From positions 64,001 to 128,000 of IMG/VR virus record IMGVR_UViG_3300037484_000374: DNA of 64,000 bases; one strand, given 5' to 3'. Under the pieces are notes generated by a model that was given only the letters and a program-made list of their open reading frames with translations, did no database searches and was not told where the DNA came from. The position numbers and the translations under genes are program-made. Within the stretch, counting starts at the first letter, position 1. Each line of letters begins with the position of its first letter. Below, piece after piece: positions 10,907-50,609 of this stretch. The DNA is from a virus.

Positions 10907-11353
10907 ATGACAAATAATTACTATATTAACAATTCAGAATTAGCCACAGAATTAGAATTTTTTAAAAAAACCTGTCAGTATAATAAGAAAGGTAAGTACG
11001 TAAAAGGAAAGATAAGTGAGGTTCTTGGTGAGATGATTTTAAGGATCGCCACCAACCTTGGGAATGATCGCTGTTTCGTAAACTATACATGGAAAAGTGA
11101 TATGGTTGCCGAGGCTGTTTTTACCTGCGTTAAATACCTACACAATTATGACAAAGAAAAAAGTGGGAACCCGTTTGGTTATATCACCATGATATGCAGA
11201 CATGCTTTCCTTAACTTTATCGCAAAACAGAAGAAACACGCAAAGATTAAAGATGTTTGTTTTAATTCTGTTGATGAGCTAATCGAGGAAGAAAATGAAT
11301 CCTATGCTCAGAGGTCAATAAATTATTCGATTTTGAAGATATCGAAAAAATAG
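10907..11353 (+). CDS. gp55: Late-transcription sigma factor gp55
   Basis: YYINN.EL...LGEMILRIATNL...FVNYTWKSDMVAEA...NPFGYITMICRHAFL..IAKQKK. Confidence 0.92.
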   Translation: MTNNYYINNSELATELEFFKKTCQYNKKGKYVKGKISEVLGEMILRIATNLGNDRCFVNYTWKSDMVAEAVFTCVKYLHNYDKEKSGNPFGYITMICRHAFLNFIAKQKKHAKIKDVCFNSVDELIEEENESYAQRSINYSILKISKK

Positions 11354-11365
11354 GAGATATGTAAC

Positions 11366-12241
11366 ATGCCAATGAAAATACTTGGTGCAAACGGTCTTAT
11401 CGGTGGAACACCAGAATCATTAGATAACATTCCAAGCAATGCTGTAAACGATGGTGACTTGGCATTAGTATTGAATGGTGAAGAATGGAGTTTTTATATT
11501 TTAGATGGTGATAACGGCGGTGCCGAAACATTACCAAATATAATTGTACCAGATGATATTATTCCAATTGGATCATCACCAAAGCGTTGGAAATTGATTG
11601 GTGGTGGCGAGAACACCGCAAATGTAATTATTCAATCCGGTTCAGGTCTTTTCACAAATATTATCACTGCCCCAGGAGATGATCTTCATATTACCTCATA
11701 TGAAAATGGTGGTATTACCATCAACAACGCAGGTGATTTAATTGTTGAGAATGATGCATATTTTGAAGAGGATATTTATGTTGACGGTCAAATAATATCA
11801 ACGAACACTACTCAAGCACCGATGATTGTTTCATCGAGCATTATGGTTGTTGGATTGAACACAGAGTTTGTCGGTGGGGTTGGTGGTGATGATCTAATGA
11901 CCAGAGATGGTTCAAGGACTTTTTCAGCACCAATCGTTGGAGTTACCCCAACAGCACCGACTCATTTAGTAACAAAAGCGTATTCGGATGCTCATGGTAC
12001 TGCTTTAAGGGGCACTGAAAGTATACCAAGTGGGGTATCAAGTTTGAGTGTTACATTCTCATCGGTGTTGGCATCTGCAAACTATATAGTAATTACAGAA
12101 GTCACAAACGTTGTTGATGCAATACCATCTGTTTATGCCAAGGTGGTTACAGATAAACAGACCACTGGTTTTACCATCGATTTCAGTGATACTATTGACA
12201 GTTCAAACTATAAACTACAGTATTTGGTTGCCCTGTTGTAA
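11366..12241 (+). CDS. Virion structural/tail-fibre-like protein
   Basis: TRDGSRTFSAPIVGVTPTAPTHLVTKAY and a C-terminal H-type-lectin-like segment, as in phage fibre proteins. Confidence 0.55.
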   Translation: MPMKILGANGLIGGTPESLDNIPSNAVNDGDLALVLNGEEWSFYILDGDNGGAETLPNIIVPDDIIPIGSSPKRWKLIGGGENTANVIIQSGSGLFTNIITAPGDDLHITSYENGGITINNAGDLIVENDAYFEEDIYVDGQIISTNTTQAPMIVSSSIMVVGLNTEFVGGVGGDDLMTRDGSRTFSAPIVGVTPTAPTHLVTKAYSDAHGTALRGTESIPSGVSSLSVTFSSVLASANYIVITEVTNVVDAIPSVYAKVVTDKQTTGFTIDFSDTIDSSNYKLQYLVALL

Positions 12242-13732: not shown

Positions 13733-15914
13733 AATAGTAAAAATTGAATGGAGGAATTTTCTCTCGTATGGTAACCAGTGGTCATCGTATGAGTTTAAAA
13801 TCGGTGTTACTCTGATCAAGGGACATGATAACGACAAGAACAGATCAAACGGTTCCGGTAAATCATCGTTCCTAGAATCACTTGTTTTTGGTTTATTCGG
13901 TACAACCATAAAGCCCATTAAAAAATCTGGTATCGTTAACTGGACTAATAAGAAGGGTTGTGAGGTAATGGTCTATTTCAAAAGAGGTGTGAACGAATAC
14001 AAGATTCACAGGGGCTTAAAGCCAAATGTATTTGATTTCTATATCAATGGGGTAGTTCAACCAAAATTAGCAAAAGTAATCGACTATCAAATAATGATCG
14101 AAGAAGACTATCTTGGTATGGACTTCAAGACATTTAAAAATCTTGTTCATTCAAATCCCAATAACTCAATATCATTGTTCGACACACCGAAAGGTGAGAA
14201 GAGAGAATTTCTTGAAAAACTGTTTGACTTGGGAATGTTTTCTGAAATGAACAAACTCATAAATGATAAATTGCAAAAGATACAATCTGGAATTATTGAA
14301 GATACCAATAATATTGAGAGCAATAAAAGAGTTATCAATGTTTTAAACTCTGATATAGATGGGGTTGATAGACAGCTTGCTGATATTTTGATACGTGATG
14401 ACAGCGAACTTGATAAATTGGAAGAGGTTGCCAAGGAGATAATTACCCGTGGCGTGTATGATAAAGATGTAGATACAGAAAGGAAACAGCTTTTAGAGGA
14501 TAGTGCAGAATTAGGAAAAGCAAGAGCATTGTTTACTGAGGTTGACAACTACATCACAACACAGGAAAACGATTTAAAAGTAGCTAATCGTGATATTGAA
14601 AAAATAAACATTACCGACACCAAAACTTCCTTGGAAGTAAAGGAAACAAAATATAATACTTTAATCGCCGCCGATCTCCCAACAAGAAAGAAAAAGAACT
14701 TAGAGGAAGAGATTACCCTAAAGGGTGAGATAAAAAAAATAACAAATTATATTGTTGAAATTAAAGAAGTCATCGCTGGTAGCAGGGGTGAATTAAAAGC
14801 GTTCCCTGATCCTGAGAATATTAAAGGGAAACATAAATGCCCAACATGCTACAGTGACGTTGATTATGATCATATCAAGGTCGAAATTGAAAAACTTAAA
14901 AAACCTATTGAAGAGAATATCAACACCAATACCTTAAAAGAAAAAGAGTTAACAACTTTAAAAGCTGGTTTCGAAACACAGATCACAGATATTGAAAGTA
15001 AGATCAAAACAATAGATGGATATATCAGAGAATCTGAACAGTTAGCGATTGATATTGAGAGGATAAAGAATGAACTTTCTACAAAAGAAGCAGAACTTGA
15101 AGCCCTTGAAAAACAAAAAGTGATATACACCCAATCACTTGCAGAGAAATATTTAACACGAACACCATTGACAGATGAGTTAGCAAAAGCTAATGTCAAG
15201 TATGATGAACAACAACAATATATAAGGGATATAGAAAAAGATAAAACATTATATGAGTTTAATCGTGATCAATTGGCTTCTATAAAAGAGTCAAATGAAA
15301 AGGCTATAAAGCAAAAGGAACAAATTCAGGCAAACTACACAAAGAAGGTTACCGAGAGAGATGATCTTCAAGCAAATAACAATAAACTCATAGGTGGATT
15401 GAATAAAAATAATACCGCTAAAGATTATCTCTCTTATCTAAAAAATAGCTTGAAGGATGAGAATGTTAAGCAATATGCTATCAGTTCGATGATACCATTT
15501 ATCAACAGACAGACAAATCATTACTTGTCAGAGACAGGTCACTCGTTCTATGTGAATATCGATGGATGGCTTGATGCCCAGATAATGGGGCCAGGAGTTC
15601 ATGACTGTGAATATGGGAATCTATCTGGCGGTGAGTCAAAATCAATCGATCTGGCGATGAAATTCGCATGTAATGACGTTGCAAACCTACAATCTGTTGC
15701 GGCCTGTGATATCTTAATACTTGATGAGATACTTGATAGTAGTATTGACACACAGGGACTTGAACAACTTATTGATATAGTCCAAGTAAAACAGAAAGAT
15801 AATAATTTAAAAGTGTTTATAATATCACATAGAGATGAAGTTAATGATATCGTTTTCGACAACGAGATTTTGATCGAAAAAAAGAATGGTTTCAGCAATA
15901 TAAAGGAGTTATAA
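13719..15914 (+). CDS. gp46: Recombination ATPase (Rad50/SbcC-like) gp46
   Basis: NFLSYGN, Walker A NGSGKSS, CPTC zinc hook, LSGGE signature, LILDE Walker B. Confidence 0.95.
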   Translation: MERIEIVKIEWRNFLSYGNQWSSYEFKIGVTLIKGHDNDKNRSNGSGKSSFLESLVFGLFGTTIKPIKKSGIVNWTNKKGCEVMVYFKRGVNEYKIHRGLKPNVFDFYINGVVQPKLAKVIDYQIMIEEDYLGMDFKTFKNLVHSNPNNSISLFDTPKGEKREFLEKLFDLGMFSEMNKLINDKLQKIQSGIIEDTNNIESNKRVINVLNSDIDGVDRQLADILIRDDSELDKLEEVAKEIITRGVYDKDVDTERKQLLEDSAELGKARALFTEVDNYITTQENDLKVANRDIEKINITDTKTSLEVKETKYNTLIAADLPTRKKKNLEEEITLKGEIKKITNYIVEIKEVIAGSRGELKAFPDPENIKGKHKCPTCYSDVDYDHIKVEIEKLKKPIEENINTNTLKEKELTTLKAGFETQITDIESKIKTIDGYIRESEQLAIDIERIKNELSTKEAELEALEKQKVIYTQSLAEKYLTRTPLTDELAKANVKYDEQQQYIRDIEKDKTLYEFNRDQLASIKESNEKAIKQKEQIQANYTKKVTERDDLQANNNKLIGGLNKNNTAKDYLSYLKNSLKDENVKQYAISSMIPFINRQTNHYLSETGHSFYVNIDGWLDAQIMGPGVHDCEYGNLSGGESKSIDLAMKFACNDVANLQSVAACDILILDEILDSSIDTQGLEQLIDIVQVKQKDNNLKVFIISHRDEVNDIVFDNEILIEKKNGFSNIKEL

Positions 15915-41272: not shown

Positions 41273-42319
41273 ATGAGTAAATGGGTAGACGAAGAAAAGT
41301 ATAATGATTTTGCAGGGAAAAAGGAACAGGAGAAAGAAAAACAAGAGTCGGGGGAAGGTCAGCAAGGGTTTGCTAAAAAATTCAGACCATCTATGGGTTC
41401 AGCAGAGAAACCAAAAGAATACGAAATTCGTTTTCTTCCTGATACAGATGGTAGATTTTATGAAGAATATTTCTATCATGGATTCTATGTTGGTGAGTCA
41501 TTCAAATTCATCGGTTGTGAAAAAAATAAGGGTCTTGACAAATATTGCCCGTGGTGTGGAATCACTCAGATTCTATATCAGGGATCGGCCAATGACAAAA
41601 AGAAAGCCGGTGATTACAAACGTAAAAATCGATATGTTGGTAACGTTTATGTTATTGATGATCCACGGGATGCAACTATCGAGAACCCAGAATACAAGAA
41701 TTCAAAATCAGTGCGGCTCTATGAATTCCCAGCAACAGTGGAAACAAAACTCAAAAAAGAAGTAACAGATAATAAAAATGGTTACGGGTTGGCAGTGTTT
41801 GATCCTGAAAATGGATACAGTATGTTGCTTTCAATTGGAGCCAAGAAAGCAGATGCTAATAAAAAAGTATGGCCAGATTATGACCAGACCATGTTTGCTC
41901 GTAGACAATCATCCATTGCCGATGGTGCTGAACTCGAAGAGATTATGGCTCAGCGTTATTCTTTAGGTGATTTTATTGAAGCCTTGATGATTACTCCCGA
42001 TGCCCATCGTGAACTTCTTAAATCAGAAATGGTTTATGAAGATGTCGAGAGAGACTTTGAGTTGAAGTTGGGCGGTTTTAATAAACTGACTACCAAAGAC
42101 GAACCAGCAAAGGAACCAGCAAAGGCTTTTGATCCAAATCAGAATGTACCACCAGTAGAAAGTAAACCAGACATGGGTGATGATACTCCTACATATGGAG
42201 CCCCACCACCAAAAACACCCTATCCGATCCAATATGGTGATGATATGGTTGTTGATAGCACAGGGTCATCGGCTCTTAGCGAGGATGATGCGCTGTTGGC
42301 CAGCTTGAGAGATTTATAA
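41273..42319 (+). CDS. gp32: Single-stranded DNA-binding protein gp32
   Basis: IRFLP, YHGF, C...CPWC zinc site, KRK.RYVGNVYVIDDP, FDPENG, acidic tail. Confidence 0.9.
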   Translation: MSKWVDEEKYNDFAGKKEQEKEKQESGEGQQGFAKKFRPSMGSAEKPKEYEIRFLPDTDGRFYEEYFYHGFYVGESFKFIGCEKNKGLDKYCPWCGITQILYQGSANDKKKAGDYKRKNRYVGNVYVIDDPRDATIENPEYKNSKSVRLYEFPATVETKLKKEVTDNKNGYGLAVFDPENGYSMLLSIGAKKADANKKVWPDYDQTMFARRQSSIADGAELEEIMAQRYSLGDFIEALMITPDAHRELLKSEMVYEDVERDFELKLGGFNKLTTKDEPAKEPAKAFDPNQNVPPVESKPDMGDDTPTYGAPPPKTPYPIQYGDDMVVDSTGSSALSEDDALLASLRDL

Positions 42320-42414: not shown

Positions 42415-42847
42415 CATTGACAAACGATATAAAATATATAGGTGATTAAGTGAACAAGAAATCGTGTTTTGATTGTAAAAATGCTGTCGTGGTACAAGGA
42501 GATGCATCGGTTGGTATTGGTGGAATATGTATTGATAACTGCCACGCACAATTAACAGAAGACCAGATGGAAGCATGTGAAGACTGTGATTGGATAGAAT
42601 ATAAATGTCCAGCAAAATGTGGTCACTTTGAACATATTATGGTTGAAGTGTGTGCCGAGTGTAAAAAAGAAATGAATACCCCATTACATGAAGTAGAGTA
42701 TTATGGGGTTGAATATGTTGATATTCCGGTATGTTCGGTGGAATGTAAAATCAAGTTTGATGAGACAGTTGGAAAAAAAATTAAAGAATATTAAAATAAT
42801 TTAGAAAAAATTTGAAAACTTATATAAATACAAATAGAGAAACTATT

Positions 42848-42925
42848 ATGAAAAACACAAAAACGACCTCGACATCCAGTAAACCAAGTAACCCCAATCA
42901 TAGTGATTGGCCGGTGTACGTGTAG
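42848..42925 (+). CDS. Putative attenuator leader peptide 1 (MKNTKTTSTSSKPSNPNHSDWPVYV)
   Basis: Starts 18 nt after late promoter 42823-42830; its stop codon overlaps the antiterminator strand; codons match the cluster-1 tRNAs. Confidence 0.75.
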   Translation: MKNTKTTSTSSKPSNPNHSDWPVYV

Positions 42926-42988
42926 AATTCTCTAAAGTAATGTTGTAACCATAAAGGGGAGAATCTACAAAGGTTTTTCCCTTTTTTT
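42921..42988 (+). promoter_or_regulatory. Attenuator 1: antiterminator (42921-42933 pairs 42958-42969) versus 14-bp terminator (42953-42984 plus U-tract)
   Basis: Base-pairing read directly from the sequence; the terminator ends 13 nt before the first tRNA. Confidence 0.8.
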
Positions 42989-43001: not shown

Positions 43002-43077
43002 GGGGTGGTGGTTCAGTAGTAGAGCACAAGGTTGAAGTCCTTGGATAGCGGGGCGCGATTCTCCTCACCCCTGACCA
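43002..43077 (+). tRNA. tRNA-Phe(GAA), degenerate T-loop and acceptor
   Basis: CAAGG-TTGAAGT-CCTTG; T-loop CGCGATT; CCA end. Confidence 0.65.
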
Positions 43078-43091
43078 AAAATTGAATATAT

Positions 43092-43174
43092 AGATTGTAC
43101 CGCCATGGGGCAAACTGCTTTTGAACGGCATGGGTGGGTGAAACCACGGGGTTCGATTCCTCTACTTTCTGCCA
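43092..43174 (+). tRNA. tRNA-Ser(TGA), atypical 8/4-like fold
   Basis: TGCT-TTTGAAC-GGCA, long variable arm GTGG...CCAC, G73, CCA. Confidence 0.7.
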
Positions 43175-43181
43175 AGAATAT

Positions 43182-43268
43182 AGTAGATTGACCGAGCGGC
43201 AAGGTATCTGGTTGCTAACCAGCAGTAAGGGTGACACCTCACAGGTTCGAATCCTGTATCTACTGCCA
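43182..43268 (+). tRNA. tRNA-Ser(GCT)
   Basis: AGTAGAT/ATCTACT acceptor, CTGG-TTGCTAA-CCAG, long variable arm, G73 CCA. Confidence 0.92.
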
Positions 43269-43281
43269 GAAATAAATGTAT

Positions 43282-43355
43282 GGGGGTGTAACTTAGTGGC
43301 AAAGTAACTGGCTTTTAACCAGTAAACGGGGGTTCGATTCTCCTCACCCCCACCA
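43282..43355 (+). tRNA. tRNA-Lys(TTT)
   Basis: Canonical cloverleaf; ACTGG-CTTTTAA-CCAGT. Confidence 0.93.
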
Positions 43356-43658
43356 AAAATTGAATAGTAACACTAACTATACACGGTAATATTACCAATG
43401 TTACAATGCAAGGGGGGGGGGGTACCATGAATAAGTTTTTTAGAAAACAGTTGGAAAAGTTGAAATCAGGTCGAGGTAAAAGTCTGACTTATAATAATAA
43501 ACATGGAAAGTTTAGAGTAAAATATTGTGATGGTGTAAAATCCAAACCAATGTTTTATGATATCGCAAAAAGATTCGCTGGCATATTCAATGGGAAAGTA
43601 TTTTACATTGAAGATGAGGATGAATATCAGCGGTATGCGTTATAATTGAGAATGATAT

Positions 43659-43735
43659 ACTCCTATGGTGTTAATTGGTAAGCATGTGTGGCTGTTAACC
43701 ACAGGGCCAATGTTCGAGTCCTCGTAGGAGTGCCA
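43659..43735 (+). tRNA. tRNA-Asn(GTT)
   Basis: TGTGG-CTGTTAA-CCACA; ACTCCTA/TAGGAGT acceptor; mismatched T-stem. Confidence 0.85.
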
Positions 43736-43743
43736 AAATTAAT

Positions 43744-43817
43744 GTATCTCTGGTGAAATGGTATCATGATTGGCTCCAACCCAATCGTTGTGGGTTCAAG
43801 TCCTACGAGGTACGCCA
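43744..43817 (+). tRNA. tRNA-Trp(CCA)
   Basis: ATTGG-CTCCAAC-CCAAT; G73 CCA. Confidence 0.9.
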
Positions 43818-43829
43818 TTAAAAATATAC

Positions 43830-43903
43830 GCTAAGAGTGGTTCTGGGAACCGATTTCTCTTGTAAGGAAGTTTTTGGGGGTTCGACTCCTCCTCTTAGCT
43901 CCA
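43830..43903 (+). tRNA. tRNA-Thr(TGT)
   Basis: GCTAAGA/TCTTAGC acceptor; loop CTTGTAA; short D-loop. Confidence 0.82.
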
Positions 43904-43959
43904 AGTTTACACACAACAAGTATTGTGGTATAATGATAGTAAATATAATAGGAGATGTA

Positions 43960-44421
43960 ATGACAAGATTTTTCAAAAGCATTAAAAATTTAATCAGGTG
44001 GTTTCCAGTAATATGGAATGACAAAGATTGGGACAACGCTTATATCTATACGATATTACATAAGAAAATATCAAATATGGAAGATTTTTTCAGAACCGAT
44101 GCTATTATCAGTGAAGCAGACAGAGTTGCCGATGAGATCAACACCGTGGTTTTAGCTCTCCAAAGACTTGTCAAAGATGAGTATGAAGAAATAGCCTTTG
44201 AAGACCATGATAAGAAATGGGGTAAAATAGGAATGATAGAAGCACCATGGAAGATGCACAAGTTTAACTTCACCAGAAAAAATGTCACCACAGAAGAGGA
44301 TAAGAAAATAGAAAAGCAGGAAATGCTTGCTTGTTTTGATAGAGTAGAAGCATATAGACAGTGTGATATTGATCTTGTATGTGATACCATGAAAGAAAAA
44401 ATTCAGGAATGGTGGGATTGA
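43960..44421 (+). CDS. Conserved phage hypothetical protein
   Basis: IKNLIRWFPVIWNDKDWD...WWD; own sigma70-type promoter at about 43906-43934. Confidence 0.7.
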   Translation: MTRFFKSIKNLIRWFPVIWNDKDWDNAYIYTILHKKISNMEDFFRTDAIISEADRVADEINTVVLALQRLVKDEYEEIAFEDHDKKWGKIGMIEAPWKMHKFNFTRKNVTTEEDKKIEKQEMLACFDRVEAYRQCDIDLVCDTMKEKIQEWWD

Positions 44422-44429
44422 AATAATAA

Positions 44430-44505
44430 CTGGGTGTAGCTGAGTTTGGTTTAGCACGGGCCTTGGGAGTCCGAGACGGAGGTTCAAATCCTCTCATCCA
44501 GACCA
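44430..44505 (+). tRNA. tRNA-Pro(TGG)
   Basis: CGGGC-CTTGGGA-GTCCG; C1-G72, A73 CCA. Confidence 0.93.
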
Positions 44506-45349: not shown

Positions 45350-46204
45350 ATGAAAAATTTGTTAAGTGTATTGGTAGCATTGGTTGCATTTCTTGCTGTC
45401 AGTACAATCCCACAGGTATCTAGGGCATCAGATGACGTTACGATAATGTTTGAGATCGGGATCGGTATTGGTAAATCTGGAAAGGTTGCCAAGAAAGTTG
45501 ACGCTGATCCACGACTCTGTAAGAATCGTGACACTGGTCGGTTGATTTATTTTGGTGTTCGTGCAACATATGATGATGTTGAACTTCACCTTGCGCGTTG
45601 GCAGGGTGACGCTGACTGTTTGACATGTGAGCGTGACGCCTGGGCCTTGGGCCTTGGATATCAAATAACCAGTGATGATCATGGAACAATGGATTATGAC
45701 GATGTGTATACCACATGGACTCATGGACTTGCCTATACATGGGGTGAGGAAAAAAGATACGGGGGTGAGGAAAAAGAAAATACTAACTGGCGTTTACATG
45801 GTAACTTCCAGATTTTTAACCGCCTTGCTGTTGGGGTTCAGACAGAAGATGCAATGCTTGAAGTTGCCTTGAATCGTTATGGTTCATTTGATCCTAACCA
45901 CGGTGAAACATTCTTAACCGCTGGTCTTGGTCTTAACTTTTTGGAAGACACAACACATGTACCAATAGCCACACCTGAAAAAGAAATCGTTTACATCGAA
46001 GGGTCAGCGGGTAAAGACGGAACCGATGGTGAAGATGGTGAAGATGGTGAAGATGGTGAAGATGGTGAAGATGGTGAAGATGGTGAAGATGGTGAAGATG
46101 GTGAAGATGGTGAAGATGGTAACAAGGGTAATAATGGAAACGGTAACGGCTCAGAAGGTGCTTCCCCAGGTCAGGGTAATGGGGCCAACGATGATGAAAA
46201 TTAA
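45350..46204 (+). CDS. Signal-peptide protein: PagL-like outer-membrane beta-barrel candidate with acidic collagen-like tail
   Basis: Sec signal; amphipathic strands (NFQIFNRLAVG, NHGETFLTAGLG); C-terminal (GED)n. Confidence 0.55.
   Translation: MKNLLSVLVALVAFLAVSTIPQVSRASDDVTIMFEIGIGIGKSGKVAKKVDADPRLCKNRDTGRLIYFGVRATYDDVELHLARWQGDADCLTCERDAWALGLGYQITSDDHGTMDYDDVYTTWTHGLAYTWGEEKRYGGEEKENTNWRLHGNFQIFNRLAVGVQTEDAMLEVALNRYGSFDPNHGETFLTAGLGLNFLEDTTHVPIATPEKEIVYIEGSAGKDGTDGEDGEDGEDGEDGEDGEDGEDGEDGEDGEDGNKGNNGNGNGSEGASPGQGNGANDDEN
46025..46120 (+). repeat. Perfect 9-nt tandem repeat (GATGGTGAA), about 10.7 copies, encoding Gly-Glu-Asp
   Basis: Read directly from the sequence. Confidence 0.97.
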
Positions 46205-46660
46205 TTTATAAAGTAAAATAGATACATAAGAAATCAAAAAAAAGGGGGGGGGGGCATAGAAATATGTTCCTCTTTTTTTGATTTAATCACTTGACTTTTT
46301 CTACAGATGTGATATAATACATTATAAGATAAATTCAGTTGAGGGATACACCATGTTACATAAGAAAACAATGTTATTAAGAACCAAAGATAATACTACC
46401 ACTGTTAGAATAGGACTTTTCGGTAATAACTTCAACCCCGATGCTTGGTATCTCTTGAATAAAAGAAATGAGCCAGATGTGATTGTTAATACATCACCAG
46501 CAGGGGCCAGCAAGATCGTTCTCTCATACAAGACATTGGAAGGAAAGAGAGTCTATGATATCTATAAAGTTACATCAATAATAGATATTTGAGAAAAAAT
46601 TAAAATAATTTGAGAAAAAATAGAAAACTTATATAAATAGTAATAGGAGAATTAAATTCA

Positions 46661-46744
46661 ATGACACTCAGACAGACATATACTCTTTTAGAACAACGCA
46701 TACTTGTGATAGGTATTGTTGTGTATTGTGGAGAAATACCGTAA
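46661..46744 (+). CDS. Putative attenuator leader peptide 2 (MTLRQTYTLLEQRILVIGIVVYCGEIP)
   Basis: Late promoter 46632-46639 and SD AGGAG; its stop codon overlaps the antiterminator strand; codons match the cluster-2 tRNAs. Confidence 0.78.
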   Translation: MTLRQTYTLLEQRILVIGIVVYCGEIP

Positions 46745-46808
46745 GACTGGGGGATAAAATAACGATCACAGAACCCCTTGGTCTTAAAAAAGATTAGGGG
46801 GTTTTTTT
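46742..46808 (+). promoter_or_regulatory. Attenuator 2: antiterminator (46742-46753 pairs 46775-46786) versus 14-bp terminator (46772-46803 plus U-tract)
   Basis: Base-pairing read directly from the sequence. Confidence 0.8.
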
Positions 46809-46814
46809 ATTTGA

Positions 46815-46842
46815 TTGACACAGCTTAAAAATATGGTATAAT
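46815..46842 (+). promoter_or_regulatory. Sigma70-type early promoter (similar ones at about 12318, 16162, 18352, 21863, 38514, 41168, 43906, 45246, 46291, 53820, 60316)
   Basis: TTGACA-N16-TATAAT with TG extension. Confidence 0.75.
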
Positions 46843-47046
46843 AAAATATAGGTAAAAGATTAAACTTTATTTAACAGGCGAGTAGGATGTCAGTAACAAT
46901 CATAGTAGTAACAGTTGTTGTAGAAATAGCATTAGTATTGTTGTTTAAAGAGAAAAACTAGGTCTTTGTTCTATGTTGAGGTGTGTGGCTTGTAATCACA
47001 ATATATTGGGGCAGAGTATCCATCATCTCAACCAAAGAAATAATGA

Positions 47047-47121
47047 AGGGGCATAACACAATGGTAGTGTACATGACTTTGAATCGTGATATGGTGGGTT
47101 CGATTCCCCCTGCCCCCGCCA
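47047..47121 (+). tRNA. tRNA-Gln(TTG)
   Basis: CATGA-CTTTGAA-TCGTG; G73 CCA. Confidence 0.9.
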
Positions 47122-47160
47122 AAAATAAATGTGTATTTTTATTATAAATACTAATAATAT

Positions 47161-47237
47161 GGGAGAGTGGTGGAACTGGTATACATACTTCGCTTAGACC
47201 GAAGGTTTTAGGGGTTCGACTCCCCTCTCTCATACCA
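47161..47237 (+). tRNA. tRNA-Leu(TAG) with short variable arm
   Basis: CTTCG-CTTAGAC-CGAAG; A73 CCA. Confidence 0.82.
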
Positions 47238-47261
47238 GATTAATCATCGTGGAGATTAACC

Positions 47262-47435
47262 ATGTGCATATTTAAATGTAGTTGTGGAAGCAGGAAAGTT
47301 AAGATAGAATCTTTTTGTAATTGTCATTATGTAATCTGTATTAATTGTAAAAATACTACAGAGAATTGTACGAGTCCAGAAATGGCAGTATTGAAATGGA
47401 ACCAAAAAATTGATAGTATAAGTCATAGTAAATAA
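47262..47435 (+). CDS. Small Lar-like zinc-finger protein (57 aa, absent from the ORF track)
   Basis: CSCGS...YVICINC...AVLKWN; RBS GGAG. Confidence 0.6.
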   Translation: MCIFKCSCGSRKVKIESFCNCHYVICINCKNTTENCTSPEMAVLKWNQKIDSISHSK

Positions 47436-47452
47436 CCAAAAGGGAGATAGAT

Positions 47453-47842
47453 ATGAAGAAATTGTTTTTAGTATTGATAATATGTTTGAGTTTGTTGTTA
47501 CCGGTAGTTGCATCAGCAAACATGGAGTGTTTGGGTGAACCGCTCACGGATGGCGAAACCAATATAGTTAATATGGTTCACGAACTTCTTACAGCATACG
47601 GTGCTTATATAATACCACTTGCAAACGCAGTTAAACCGGAAGAGGTTTTGGCAATGACTCGACCCGATCTTCAAAGATTGGCAACCCAATTAACAGAAGA
47701 GGGTCTTTTACAAGTGGTTTCAGGTCAGATTGGTTATTACGAAGAGGGTGATGTTTGGATGTTCGTGATTGTCGAACCAACACTGGATAAGGAAGCGGCA
47801 TGTATTATCAGTGTAATGTTAAGAGAGAAGACAGCAAAATGA
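47453..47842 (+). CDS. Secreted hypothetical protein
   Basis: Signal peptide MKKLFLVLIICLSLLLPVVASA. Confidence 0.7.
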   Translation: MKKLFLVLIICLSLLLPVVASANMECLGEPLTDGETNIVNMVHELLTAYGAYIIPLANAVKPEEVLAMTRPDLQRLATQLTEEGLLQVVSGQIGYYEEGDVWMFVIVEPTLDKEAACIISVMLREKTAK

Positions 47843-48234
47843 AAATTTTATTCAGAATATTGATTGTATTAATGTTTTTGTCAGTACCAATGAGCGCACA
47901 GGCAAAAAAAGAATGTACCAGTTGTGGAACGCTGGGTGTTACCGAGCAGATTACGGTAAATGATATTAACAAACAAGTCACTGAGTATTGTAGTGAAAAT
48001 ATGGGCAAGATGAAAACGTGGCCAGTACATAGGGCCATCAAAAAAGCCGAGAAGGGGATCAATTTGATCGTCACACGGTTTATCGACAAGGGGTACGTTG
48101 ATGGTATCACTGTCGAGTTTAAAGTCGTTAGCGATGAGCTATGGCCCGATAGTAAAAAAGTTTATGTAGAATTAACCATTGTTCCAAATAATAAGAAACC
48201 GTCAAGGTGTGTTATCACGGGAAGGTTACAATGA
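47839..48234 (+). CDS. Secreted hypothetical protein
   Basis: Signal peptide MKILFRILIVLMFLSVPMSAQA. Confidence 0.7.
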   Translation: MKILFRILIVLMFLSVPMSAQAKKECTSCGTLGVTEQITVNDINKQVTEYCSENMGKMKTWPVHRAIKKAEKGINLIVTRFIDKGYVDGITVEFKVVSDELWPDSKKVYVELTIVPNNKKPSRCVITGRLQ

Positions 48235-48605
48235 TGAGAATTGTATATATACTCTTAGCACTGATGGTTTTTATGTCACCATCGTTTGAAAAACTTAGCG
48301 CATATTCTGGGATGAGTCAACAAACCAAGAACCAAGGAAGCAATACGAATGTTGTGGAGGTAAAAAAAGAAATTCGAGCATGGTGTGAATATTATTCAGA
48401 AAAAATACCATCAAGGTTAACGTTAATATTATTACAAAGTTCACTGGATGGTTATTGTAACTTTGCAGTTCGTGAGAGGATGGTATATTGGGTTGATAGT
48501 GTGGCATTTATTAAGAATAATGAGATTTGGGTAAAGACCATTATCATCCCTGTAAAGGGTGGAGAAAAAATAGAGTTTACGTTAAGACTCGTAACGAAGT
48601 GTTAA
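48231..48605 (+). CDS. Secreted/membrane-anchored hypothetical protein
   Basis: Hydrophobic N-terminus; ATGA coupling to the upstream gene. Confidence 0.65.
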   Translation: MMRIVYILLALMVFMSPSFEKLSAYSGMSQQTKNQGSNTNVVEVKKEIRAWCEYYSEKIPSRLTLILLQSSLDGYCNFAVRERMVYWVDSVAFIKNNEIWVKTIIIPVKGGEKIEFTLRLVTKC

Positions 48606-48615
48606 TATAAAATAT

Positions 48616-48705
48616 GGAGAGTGCAAATAAGGCTGGATTGGTCTGGCGGTTGGCTGTAAACCAACCCCTGATAGACATGGGGTTCGAATCCTTCACTCCC
48701 CACCA
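48616..48705 (+). tRNA. tRNA-Tyr(GTA), atypical 8/4-like fold with expanded D region
   Basis: GTTGG-CTGTAAA-CCAAC, long variable region, A73 CCA. Confidence 0.8.
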
Positions 48706-48718
48706 AATAGGAACAAGT

Positions 48719-48880
48719 ATGGATATTGAAAAATGTGAATGTGGAAGTAAGAATGTTATACCAGAACTTTTTTGCGGTAGATCATATATCTATTGTAAGG
48801 ATTGTGAAAAAACCACCGGCGAACATATATTACTCGATGAGGCCATAGGTGAATGGAATAAAATGTCCAGAGTGTGGTGA
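48719..48880 (+). CDS. Small Lar-like zinc-finger protein
   Basis: CECGS...YIYCKDC...EAIGEWN. Confidence 0.6.
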   Translation: MDIEKCECGSKNVIPELFCGRSYIYCKDCEKTTGEHILLDEAIGEWNKMSRVW

Positions 48881-49427
48881 TGAAGCAGTACAGGCATTAG
48901 TCAATGGAAGACCGGCCATGGTTTGTGAGAGTTGTATCAATGGAGTTATGACACTTACACAATGCCAATATTGTAATGAATATAGATACAAGAGACAACA
49001 AAAAGTTTGTGGCTGTAGGGAAACGATGAACGAATAATACATGTACCATCCAGACAATAGGTTTCTGGCAATGAGCTTACGAAACTCGTTTGATAGTCTC
49101 AACTCCTATATGGTACCCCAATTTAAAAAAGGATTCACAATGCCTATAAATTTGGAAATTGAAGATTATGAAAGTGTTTTAATTTTAGCAGATGATGAAA
49201 ATGGGAATTTAGTCTGGGAAGTATTGATGCCCGAAATTGATGAAAATGTAGACAGTGAAGGGGTTTCAATACCAACATTAATGTGCGCCGCTGTTGCAAC
49301 CAGAATGAAAGAAGATAAGGGGTTTGTTGATGATATGATAAACTGGTTTGATTGTTTCGTTTGTACTGAACCACCACCAGTTAAAGGTAGAATGAAAACA
49401 AGTTTGAGGAGAGTAAAATAATTTTAT

Positions 49428-49502
49428 GCTCTGATAGTTTAACGGTAGAACGGACAACTTATAGTTGTTTAATGGCCGGTTCGACTCCACCTCAGAGCAC
49501 CA
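49428..49502 (+). tRNA. tRNA-Ile(TAT)
   Basis: GACAA-CTTATAG-TTGTT; GCTCTGA/TCAGAGC acceptor; A73 CCA. Confidence 0.85.
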
Positions 49503-49624
49503 TTAAGGTTTACGGTATGATAAAAATATGTTTGAAATGTGATCAAAAAAAGGATATATCTGAATTTCATAAAAATTGCCATGCTGAATATCATCATTTG
49601 AAAAGATGTAAAAATTGAAAATAA

Positions 49625-49704
49625 GCGGGTATGATAAGCCAAGGGCATTGGTAAACTGGACACCAGCCAGTAAATAAGGGGTTCGACTCCCCCTTCCCGC
49701 TCCA
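49625..49704 (+). tRNA. Atypical Gly-like tRNA (possible ACC anticodon); identical to 17266-17345
   Basis: Same sequence as the 17.3-kb copy. Confidence 0.6.
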
Positions 49705-49716
49705 AAAGTTTTATAT

Positions 49717-49793
49717 AGTTCCGTAGCTTAATTGGCCAAGCATCTCTTTTACACGGAGAAGTCATAAGAGTTCGAGTCTCTTCGGAACCACCA
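49717..49793 (+). tRNA. tRNA-Val(TAC)
   Basis: TCTCT-TTTACAC-GGAGA; A73 CCA. Confidence 0.9.
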
Positions 49794-49803
49794 ATATTAA
49801 TAT

Positions 49804-49880
49804 AGCGGTGTAGCTCAGTGGTAGAGCCGTGGTCCTGATAAGGCACAGACTTAAAGTTCGATTCTTTTTCACCGCTACCA
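49804..49880 (+). tRNA. tRNA-Ile(GAT)
   Basis: AGCGGTG/CACCGCT acceptor; loop CTGATAA. Confidence 0.85.
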
Positions 49881-50451
49881 TTAAATAAAGGATGTTAATA
49901 TGGATGAATTTGTTAAAGTATTTTGTAGGGTTGTAAAGATGCATTGGTACACTTGGAAAGCAAAATATATTCTGGATTCTATTTTGGATGTATGTCGATG
50001 GATAATTTATATTGGTTTCCTTCCAAAGACATTAATTAACTGGACTGTTGGTTGTCATTTGGCAAACTCCAAAAGATTAAGGAAGGTTATTATAGAATCT
50101 GATTTTACAGACATCATAAAATTTGTAGATCGGGCTGATAGAGCCTATAGAAACCTTTACATCGAAGATTAAAGGAACAAAATGAGTAAGCTAAAAATTG
50201 TTTTGAGGATAGTAAGATTGTACAGATGTACTTTTATAGGAAAGTATTACATACCGTTTTTAAATAAAATCATGGATTGTTTTGTGTTTCTTGGAATTAT
50301 CCACTACGGATTTCACAACCATATTGTTGATAAGATAAAGGAAAACACACAAAGAATAATTGAGATCGCCATAGAAGGTGGTAACCATGACCTTGCTGAT
50401 ATCGCTGATGATCAGAATAAAACAGCAGACGATTTATATATTTAAATGTGA

Positions 50452-50524
50452 CGCAAAGTAGACCGGTGTCTGGTGAAGTCTCATAAGCTCTCACGCTGGG
50501 GTTCAATTCCCCACTTTGCATCCA
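50452..50524 (+). tRNA. tRNA-Met(CAT), initiator-like C1:A72 mismatch
   Basis: Loop CTCATAA; T-arm TGGGG-TTCAATT-CCCCA; CCA. Confidence 0.75.
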
Positions 50525-50535
50525 AATAATTAAAT

Positions 50536-50609
50536 GGGGATATAGTTTAGTGGCAGAACAGCTGTCTTTCTAACAGCCAGCAGGGGTTCGATTCCCCTTA
50601 TCCCTACCA
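50536..50609 (+). tRNA. tRNA-Glu(TTC)
   Basis: GCTGT-CTTTCTA-ACAGC; canonical arms; CCA. Confidence 0.88.

Follow-up and report, generated by a model that had tools for sequence, protein, structure and literature searches.

The purpose of phage tRNAs is debated, the proposals including compensation for codon usage, replacement of host tRNAs lost in infection and escape from anticodon nucleases. Leader-peptide attenuation, for its part, is known from other genes. In the trpL, hisL, leuL, thrL and ilvL attenuators a promoter, a short leader carrying regulatory codons and mutually exclusive antiterminator and terminator folds are combined, and the stop codon adjoins the antiterminator strand, so that a finishing ribosome favours termination. 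The pheM leader of E. coli pheST brings leader-peptide attenuation to the decoding machinery, sensing the aminoacyl-tRNA that its product helps to make, while T-box riboswitches place a terminator/antiterminator switch, responsive to tRNA status, before translation-related genes. To these systems we liken an element at positions 42823-42988 of the 64,000-nucleotide stretch of viral DNA analysed here (the window), which spans bases 64001-128000 of an IMG/VR virus contig 171 kb long (IMGVR_UViG_3300037484_000374; completeness estimated at 71%).

Judging from its sequence and from models of its folds, this element is probably, with considerable room for doubt, a ribosome-mediated attenuator gating late transcription into the first of two tRNA blocks. 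From the sequence elements, exclusive folds, predicted ribosome-position dependence and codon match, all computed here, we infer promoter use, leader translation, pausing and the regulatory outcome. Full-text searches of the literature brought up no paper in which leader-peptide attenuation acts on tRNA genes, either phage or cellular; the mechanism class is known, and the variant proposed here, applied to tRNA genes through a leader sampling an entire block of them, is undescribed as far as could be found.

In the proposed mechanism, RNA polymerase carrying the phage late sigma factor would initiate just past TATAAATA (42823-42830) and a ribosome would start on a 25-codon leader, while a hairpin at 42888-42919 may make the polymerase wait near the stop codon for the ribosome to catch up. 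With fast decoding of Lys, Asn, Thr, Ser, Pro and Trp codons, the ribosome would reach the last codons or the UAG and cover 42921-42933, the terminator at 42953-42984 would form, and transcription would end 13 nt before tRNA-Phe. On the contrary, slow decoding of any such codon, when the matching charged tRNAs are scarce, would make the ribosome lag; 42921-42933 would then pair with 42958-42969 once the latter is made, no terminator would form, and the polymerase would enter the tRNA genes. The outcome would be a negative feedback that provides phage tRNAs on demand. If this is true, the phage gauges how fast a defined codon set is decoded and provides the corresponding tRNAs only at need, and the slow decoding itself could come from decay of host tRNAs or from their cleavage by anticodon nucleases.

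The leader and its codon match

The element presents, in order, a putative promoter, a short open reading frame (ORF) that has a start codon and is preceded by a ribosome-binding site with a weak Shine-Dalgarno (SD) sequence, an enrichment of this ORF in regulatory codons, and a terminator placed between the leader and the tRNA genes. An antiterminator that excludes the terminator would form first, and in silico the position of the ribosome in the leader decides between both folds.

The promoter is represented by the octamer TATAAATA (42823-42830, plus strand), a putative −10 element of T4-type late promoters in its extended form TTATATAAATA, located 17 nt before the leader ATG. The intergenic position of the octamer in this extended form, together with a gp55 late-sigma homologue encoded at 10907-11353 (phrog_234, E 1.3e-37), is consistent with a T4-type late promoter. 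The extended motif occurs 13 times on the plus strand versus 6 on the minus strand, mostly in intergenic positions before an SD sequence and ATG. Counts of the bare octamer were rejected as proof of late promoters, since it shows no strand bias (29 versus 26) and only the extended form is biased. The −10 element is part of a 48-nt promoter block (42790-42837, plus strand; ATTAAAATAATTT ... GAAAACTTATATAAATA ... AATAG) that overlaps the stop codon of a gene for a 114-residue protein. The predicted 5' end of the transcript (42835-42846, plus strand) carries a weak SD-like AGAGAA at 42835-42841, and in the minimum-energy fold of the full-length RNA the 42835-42846 region pairs with 42921-42934.

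The predicted leader ORF (42848-42925, plus strand) contains 25 codons, encoding MKNTKTTSTSSKPSNPNHSDWPVYV, and its codons 2-17 are exclusively Lys, Asn, Thr, Ser and Pro. A recount agrees with the codon list given in the first-pass annotation of this DNA (AAA three times, AAC/AAU three times, ACA/ACG/ACC four times, UCG/UCC plus AGU three times, CCA/CCC/CCG, and UGG). Its further statement that both Ser tRNAs of the block are matched stands for tRNA-Ser(GCU) but is doubtful for tRNA-Ser(UGA), which default ARAGORN and Rfam both miss.

Leader codons were scored against the anticodons of the first-block tRNAs, Phe included, either with strict wobble or with four-way wobble, in which U34 reads whole codon boxes. 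Cognate tRNAs exist for 15 of the 24 codons by the strict rule and for 17 of 24 by the four-way one. This match ranks first among the 915 ORFs of 20-45 codons starting with ATG in the six frames of the contig, with no other ORF equalling it, while, of 26,636 sliding windows of 24 codons taken from long ORFs, 12 scored at least 15 and none 17. Similarly, a run of 16 residues made up only of F, S, K, N, W, T and P, as the leader has directly after its Met, was absent in 27,524 windows. The match is also frame-specific, the other two frames of the leader DNA scoring 7 and 4. Thus, the A/C-rich composition does not explain it, and the frame test argues for selection on the leader at the codon level.

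An ORF placed behind a late promoter might also be an ordinary small late gene, with a 25-residue polar peptide acting in trans and tRNA genes that are merely adjacent. The promoter-to-ATG spacing is indeed like that of other late genes of this genome, and T4-like phages have many tiny ORFs. Nonetheless, the polar peptide is of low complexity and has no family match or homologue beyond identical copies, and gene callers left the ORF uncalled on related contigs. Such a gene would, furthermore, leave unexplained both the transcription of tRNA-Phe, Ser and Lys, starting 13 nt past the terminator, and the agreement between peptide composition and tRNA set seen in three elements (see below), and we regard it as improbable.

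Competing folds and the genes behind the terminator

The intrinsic terminator (42953-42988, plus strand) consists of a 14-bp hairpin at 42953-42984 and seven U at 42982-42988. Its competitor pairs the 5' strand UGUAGAAUUCUCU (42921-42933, plus strand; UGUAGA(A)UUCUCU), which covers the UAG stop codon at 42923-42925, with the 3' strand GGAGAAUCUACA (42958-42969, plus strand), and the resulting helix comprises 6 bp, a 1-nt bulge and another 5-6 bp. Both helices use shared bases, the 3' strand falling within the terminator's left arm and loop and making up most of that arm, and they are therefore mutually exclusive. The first-pass annotation had proposed precisely this exclusion, and the strings and positions of both strands, checked in the sequence, are right.

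Isolated, the alternative helix has an energy of −11.2 to −12.0 kcal/mol, and the terminator one of −15.5 to −19.4 kcal/mol. The minimum-energy fold is nevertheless the antiterminator for transcripts ending at 42969-42980, the terminator winning from 42984 onwards. The antiterminator is thus competitive in folding, as had been anticipated, and dominates as long as exposure of the RNA stops at 42970-42980, with the right terminator arm still hidden. Holding 42910-42940 unpaired, a check suggested with the original claim, makes the terminator form, and all the in-silico checks named there turned out in favour of that claim. For the full-length RNA the terminator state (−36.2 kcal/mol) is better by 5 kcal/mol than the enforced antiterminator (−31.2 kcal/mol), and hence the antiterminator can act only kinetically, as the antiterminators of classic attenuators likewise do.

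Ribosome position was simulated by moving a mask of 29 nt codon by codon along the leader. About 12 antiterminator pairs stayed with the P site at codons 1-20, and then 9, 3, 1, 0 and 0 at the last five positions. In this mask folding, the antiterminator is lost only with the ribosome on the last 4-5 codons or on the stop codon. Within the leader, the perfect 7-bp hairpin CCAAUCA-UAG-UGAUUGG noted earlier is present (42894-42910, plus strand; −6.0 kcal/mol) and has an extended form at 42888-42919 (−9.3 kcal/mol). These hairpins end 4-13 nt before the stop codon and constitute a candidate pause signal for RNA polymerase.

Dinucleotide shuffles of the 105 nt upstream, in which competitors for the left arm of the terminator were scored, give a measure of how unusual this arrangement is. 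Helix energy alone was rejected as proof of an antiterminator, since shuffles match it often and the control with natural terminators is not clean. A competitor of equal strength, with its upstream strand confined to the 18 nt surrounding the stop codon, arose, however, in only 3 of 1000 shuffles, and a strand over the stop codon is in the position that the classic attenuation model requires.

The region folds somewhat better than shuffles (z −2.56), as might be expected if the transcript of ~155 nt from TATAAATA to the terminator were a stable non-coding RNA like T4 RNAs C and D, the more so as T4 has rnaC and rnaD beside its tRNA genes. Most of this fold energy is, however, supplied by the terminator, and the 5' half of the transcript is unstructured, A/C-rich and endowed with an open frame and a start codon. 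Neither a T-box nor any other Rfam family was detected at the element, where only tRNAs pass the gathering thresholds and sub-threshold matches are terminator-like noise. Since, in addition, rnaC and rnaD of T4 follow the tRNA genes of their unit instead of preceding them behind a terminator, a stable RNA appears highly improbable here.

Returning to the attenuator and the genes that it would gate, the U-tract ends at 42988 and tRNA-Phe(GAA) starts at 43002 (43002-43075, plus strand; Rfam 35.4 bits). The distance of 13 nt reported for the first tRNA is therefore correct, and such a gap is too short for a promoter. ARAGORN detects 12 tRNA genes in the contig, all inside the window and in two groups, the first of which (43182-44505) comprises Ser(GCU), Lys, Asn, Trp, Thr and Pro. 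It calls tRNA-Phe(GAA) only in the near-identical contigs L119 (10516-10589) and L120 (4349-4422), the window copy being one A short in the T arm relative to these and, consequently, uncalled. Even where the gene is intact, the T loop of this tRNA is CGCGAUU and departs from the usual UUCGAAU type. Next to it lies a degenerate tRNA-Ser(UGA)-like sequence (43083-43174, plus strand) whose anticodon arm, long variable arm and T arm are intact and whose acceptor stem is poor (~4/7 pairs). This sequence is called only at a relaxed ARAGORN threshold, has no Rfam match even at E<=10, and may be a decaying paralogue of the adjacent tRNA-Ser(GCU) or an unusual tRNA.

The block continues with tRNA-Ser(GCU) and tRNA-Lys(UUU) (43182-43355, plus strand), with tRNA-Asn(GUU), tRNA-Trp(CCA) and tRNA-Thr(UGU) (43659-43903, plus strand) after a 72-residue ORF that has a sigma-70-like promoter ahead at 43378-43407, and with tRNA-Pro(UGG) (44430-44505, plus strand) after another ORF, ahead of which a sigma-70-like promoter lies at 43906-43934. 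The first-pass annotation held that, without antitermination, this promoter would leave the cluster silent. Strictly, this is so for the first four genes (Phe, Ser-like, Ser and Lys) and not for the Asn/Trp/Thr group or Pro, because the sigma-70-like sites make the attenuator the sole transcription route only for the former. As a separate observation, a run of 9-11 G at 43411-43422 lies just before the ATG of the 72-residue ORF (43427-43645), at the expected ribosome-binding site; its length differs between the window and L119/L120, and it could be a sequencing artefact or a variable tract.

The second tRNA cluster and other phages

A search of the virus's own genome found the promoter block in two copies only, at 42790-42837 and at 46600-46646, the latter before the second tRNA group (47047-50609: Gln, Leu, Ile(UAU), Val, Ile(GAU) and Glu). 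In a pairwise alignment of both tRNA-cluster loci, identity is limited to this block and the sequences are not alignable downstream, the leader and terminator of the second element being unrelated to those of the first. The second leader ORF (46661-46744) nonetheless repeats the design, with 27 codons, encoding MTLRQTYTLLEQRILVIGIVVYCGEIP, an internal hairpin, and a strand, beginning exactly at the UAA stop codon, whose pairing partner is the left arm of the strong terminator at 46771-46804. Its strength and stop-codon placement were equalled in 4 of 1000 shuffles, and 10-14 of its 26 codons match the Gln/Leu/Ile/Val/Glu tRNAs (0.5-5% of windows). Past this terminator, the 46815-47046 region contains a consensus sigma-70 promoter (TTGACA-16-TG-TATAAT). 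It also contains a hydrophobic 24-codon ORF at 46887-46961 (MSVTIIVVTVVVEIALVLLFKEKN), likewise rich in Val, Ile, Leu and Glu, which is followed by a hairpin lacking a U-tract and then by tRNA-Gln. Between tRNA-Gln and tRNA-Leu(UAG), 11 nt before the latter, TATAAATA recurs at 47143-47150, as an internal late promoter or by chance.

A third such element, analogous to that of the window but not alignable with it, was detected in a relative whose gp32 is 43% identical (L128, 11790-11975). It shows TATAAATA, a strong SD sequence, a 28-codon ORF at 11820-11906 (MILTTIYIYTSIDTTSPNNWDNGGIMPV) and a strong terminator at 11938-11971, downstream of which lie an SNase homologue, a PEP-CTERM protein and then tRNA-Asn, Pro, Ile(UAU), Thr, Trp and Ser; the tRNA-Ile(UAU) (14792-14862) is missed by default ARAGORN. 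Of its 27 scored leader residues, 18 belong to its own tRNA set (0.2-0.3% of windows). In the predicted fold, codons 2-5 pair with the stop-codon region, and masking codons 1-7 frees that region for the terminator arm, so that by modelling all four regions of a trp-like design are present in this element. Each of the three leaders (first and second of the window, and that of L128) scores highest against its own tRNA set, and the counts of Lys 3/Ile 0 in the first window leader versus Lys 0/Ile 5 in that of L128 follow the presence of Lys versus Ile(UAU) tRNAs. The weight of the L128 evidence is moderate, because ~5 ORF/terminator pairs were inspected to find it.

In the Caulobacter phage phiCbK (NC_019405, 45501-56500), depositors annotated rho-independent terminators directly before three tRNA blocks, and short ORFs precede them. 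By comparison of compositions, the 45-residue ORF before Pro/Lys/Leu/Ser draws 23 of 44 residues from that set, and the one before Phe/Val/Ile/Gln/Gly contains ...QFVRQIQVVRNI..., two of the three ORFs thus being enriched in the amino acids of their block. The ORF before Glu/Asp shows no convincing match in composition and runs into the terminator hairpin. The chances seem to us evenly balanced that several unrelated phage lineages run their tRNA blocks as modular 'tRNA-on-demand' units, each with a mini-gene sampling the codons that its block reads and a trp-style switch that activates the block only at slow decoding, 42823-42988 being one instance. If so, such units have a simple search signature: late promoter, mini-ORF, terminator, tRNA.

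Other comparisons delimit this distribution. Among the 21 loci recovered with the gp32 profile, L121 and L130 lack a comparable element and only L128 has one, and no tRNA of the other phage loci compared has a terminator within 120 nt upstream. A search of phage GenBank sequences with the 2.3-kb region gave matches at the tRNA level only, gp32 as a single query against viral contigs gave no match, and the 17-nt promoter motif gave >100 unrelated AT-rich matches in viral contigs, of which the 3 with tRNAs have the motif on the opposite strand. Homologues of the 114-residue protein form a single cluster at >=90% identity, the copies carried by L119, L120 and L149 are identical, and the composite pattern of the promoter block retrieved from metagenome contigs one further copy of the second element, also identical. 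The next gp32 relatives are <=56% identical, with none between 56% and ~100%. In four of the more distant ones (L135, L136, L137 and L139), a transfer-messenger RNA lies ~2 kb downstream of gp32, with tag peptides ADDYNYEYAMAA or ADDYELRMAA.

Several points weigh against an attenuator at 42823-42988. Regarding initiation and folding: (i) the SD sequence of the leader is weak (GAG) and the 5' untranslated region would have only ~11 nt, even if an AAA second codon and an A-rich start, both of which the leader has, favour initiation; (ii) the folding model gives read-through when the leader is wholly untranslated, so that any termination would need tight coupling of transcription and translation, for which the modelled internal hairpin is a plausible pause signal; and (iii) the strength of the helix is ordinary, an equal or better competitor appearing in 71 of 500 and 121 of 1000 shuffles (12-14%), and competitors of similar strength occur at some of the genome's other strong hairpin-plus-U sites, although clean intergenic terminators mostly lack them. 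Regarding the codons, the ORF is A/C-rich over its first 50 nt, a composition that itself favours Lys, Asn, Thr and Pro codons; no Phe codon is present although tRNA-Phe is the first gene past the terminator, and His, Asp, Val and Tyr codons are present that have no matching tRNA in the block. Moreover, the Asn/Trp/Thr and Pro genes sit behind ORFs with their own promoter-like sites. As to relatives, the only ones that carry this element, L119 and L120, are identical across leader and terminator, and consequently they allow no test of covariation or conservation. In the T4-like relative L121, which is without the element, an ordinary gene runs directly into the first tRNA. T4 itself was rejected as a precedent, its spacer before tRNA-Gln having no hairpin with a U-tract.

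Part of these observations would fit a constitutive, partly leaky terminator that ends the transcripts of gp32 and the 114-residue gene together with a short late transcript, the tRNAs being made by unregulated read-through and the ORF, its codons and the helix being incidental. A helix energy at chance level, comparable competitors at other terminators of the genome, a codon bias that follows from A/C-richness (with the other frames still scoring 7 and 4) and a conservation rendered uninformative by identical copies are all compatible with it. This explanation must, however, treat as coincidences the frame-specific codon match that ranks 1/915, the stop-codon placement of the competitor in each of two unrelated leaders (3/1000 and 4/1000 shuffles) and the third matched leader, in L128, and we consider it unlikely, although it is the strongest of the rival explanations.

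Genomic setting and comparison with known systems

The window has a G+C content of ~35%, and its plus strand carries nearly all long ORFs. By sequence, the virus is a distant T4-like phage, uncultured. Its genes include those of the gp32 single-strand DNA-binding protein (41273-42319; PF08804), gp46/gp47-like nuclease subunits and UvsX. The Cys-rich protein of 114 residues encoded directly upstream of the element (42450-42794) has several CxxC pairs and no family in Pfam or PHROG, and the length at its C terminus differs between near-identical contigs, giving 101-118 residues. Between the two tRNA blocks, 45350-46204 encodes a 284-residue protein whose N terminus is signal-like and whose C-terminal part carries a collagen-like (GED)n repeat; its PHROG matches to tail fibres are weak and involve the repeat only.

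Among tRNA arrays, the closest parallel located in the literature is a cryptic operon of Anabaena, which carries extra tRNA genes that are induced under translational stress (PMC8421152). It resembles the proposed phage unit in that an extra tRNA block is expressed when translation is impaired. It is, however, bacterial, and the words attenuator, leader and terminator are absent from its description, so that its mechanism appears to be different. The tRNA cluster of phage T4 shares with the present one the interspersion of tRNA genes with small ORFs, the late-promoter motif and the late sigma factor, and differs in having no short leader and terminator before tRNA-Gln.

Among switches, T-box riboswitches bind uncharged tRNA directly and do so without translation, on the contrary to what is proposed here. 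The pheM leader controls a synthetase, attends to one amino acid and is cellular, while the products of the phage element are tRNAs and its setting is viral. The enterobacterial attenuators come close in dimensions, the energies of the phage element (~−11 kcal/mol for the antiterminator and −16 to −19 kcal/mol for the terminator) being similar to those of the trp system, and its distance of ~65 nt from stop codon to U-tract also counting among the likenesses. The ilv and thr leaders, in addition, sense several amino acids together, as the phage leader would. On the other hand, enterobacterial attenuators control biosynthetic enzymes and use runs of one codon, whereas the phage element would control tRNAs from a phage late promoter, with five to six codon families in mixed order. 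The strong hairpin between regions 1 and 2 that enforces untranslated termination in the enterobacterial systems was also not found in the window element and is present in that of L128. If the proposed reading is true, classic attenuation, as described for amino-acid biosynthesis and synthetase genes, extends to tRNA genes and to viruses.

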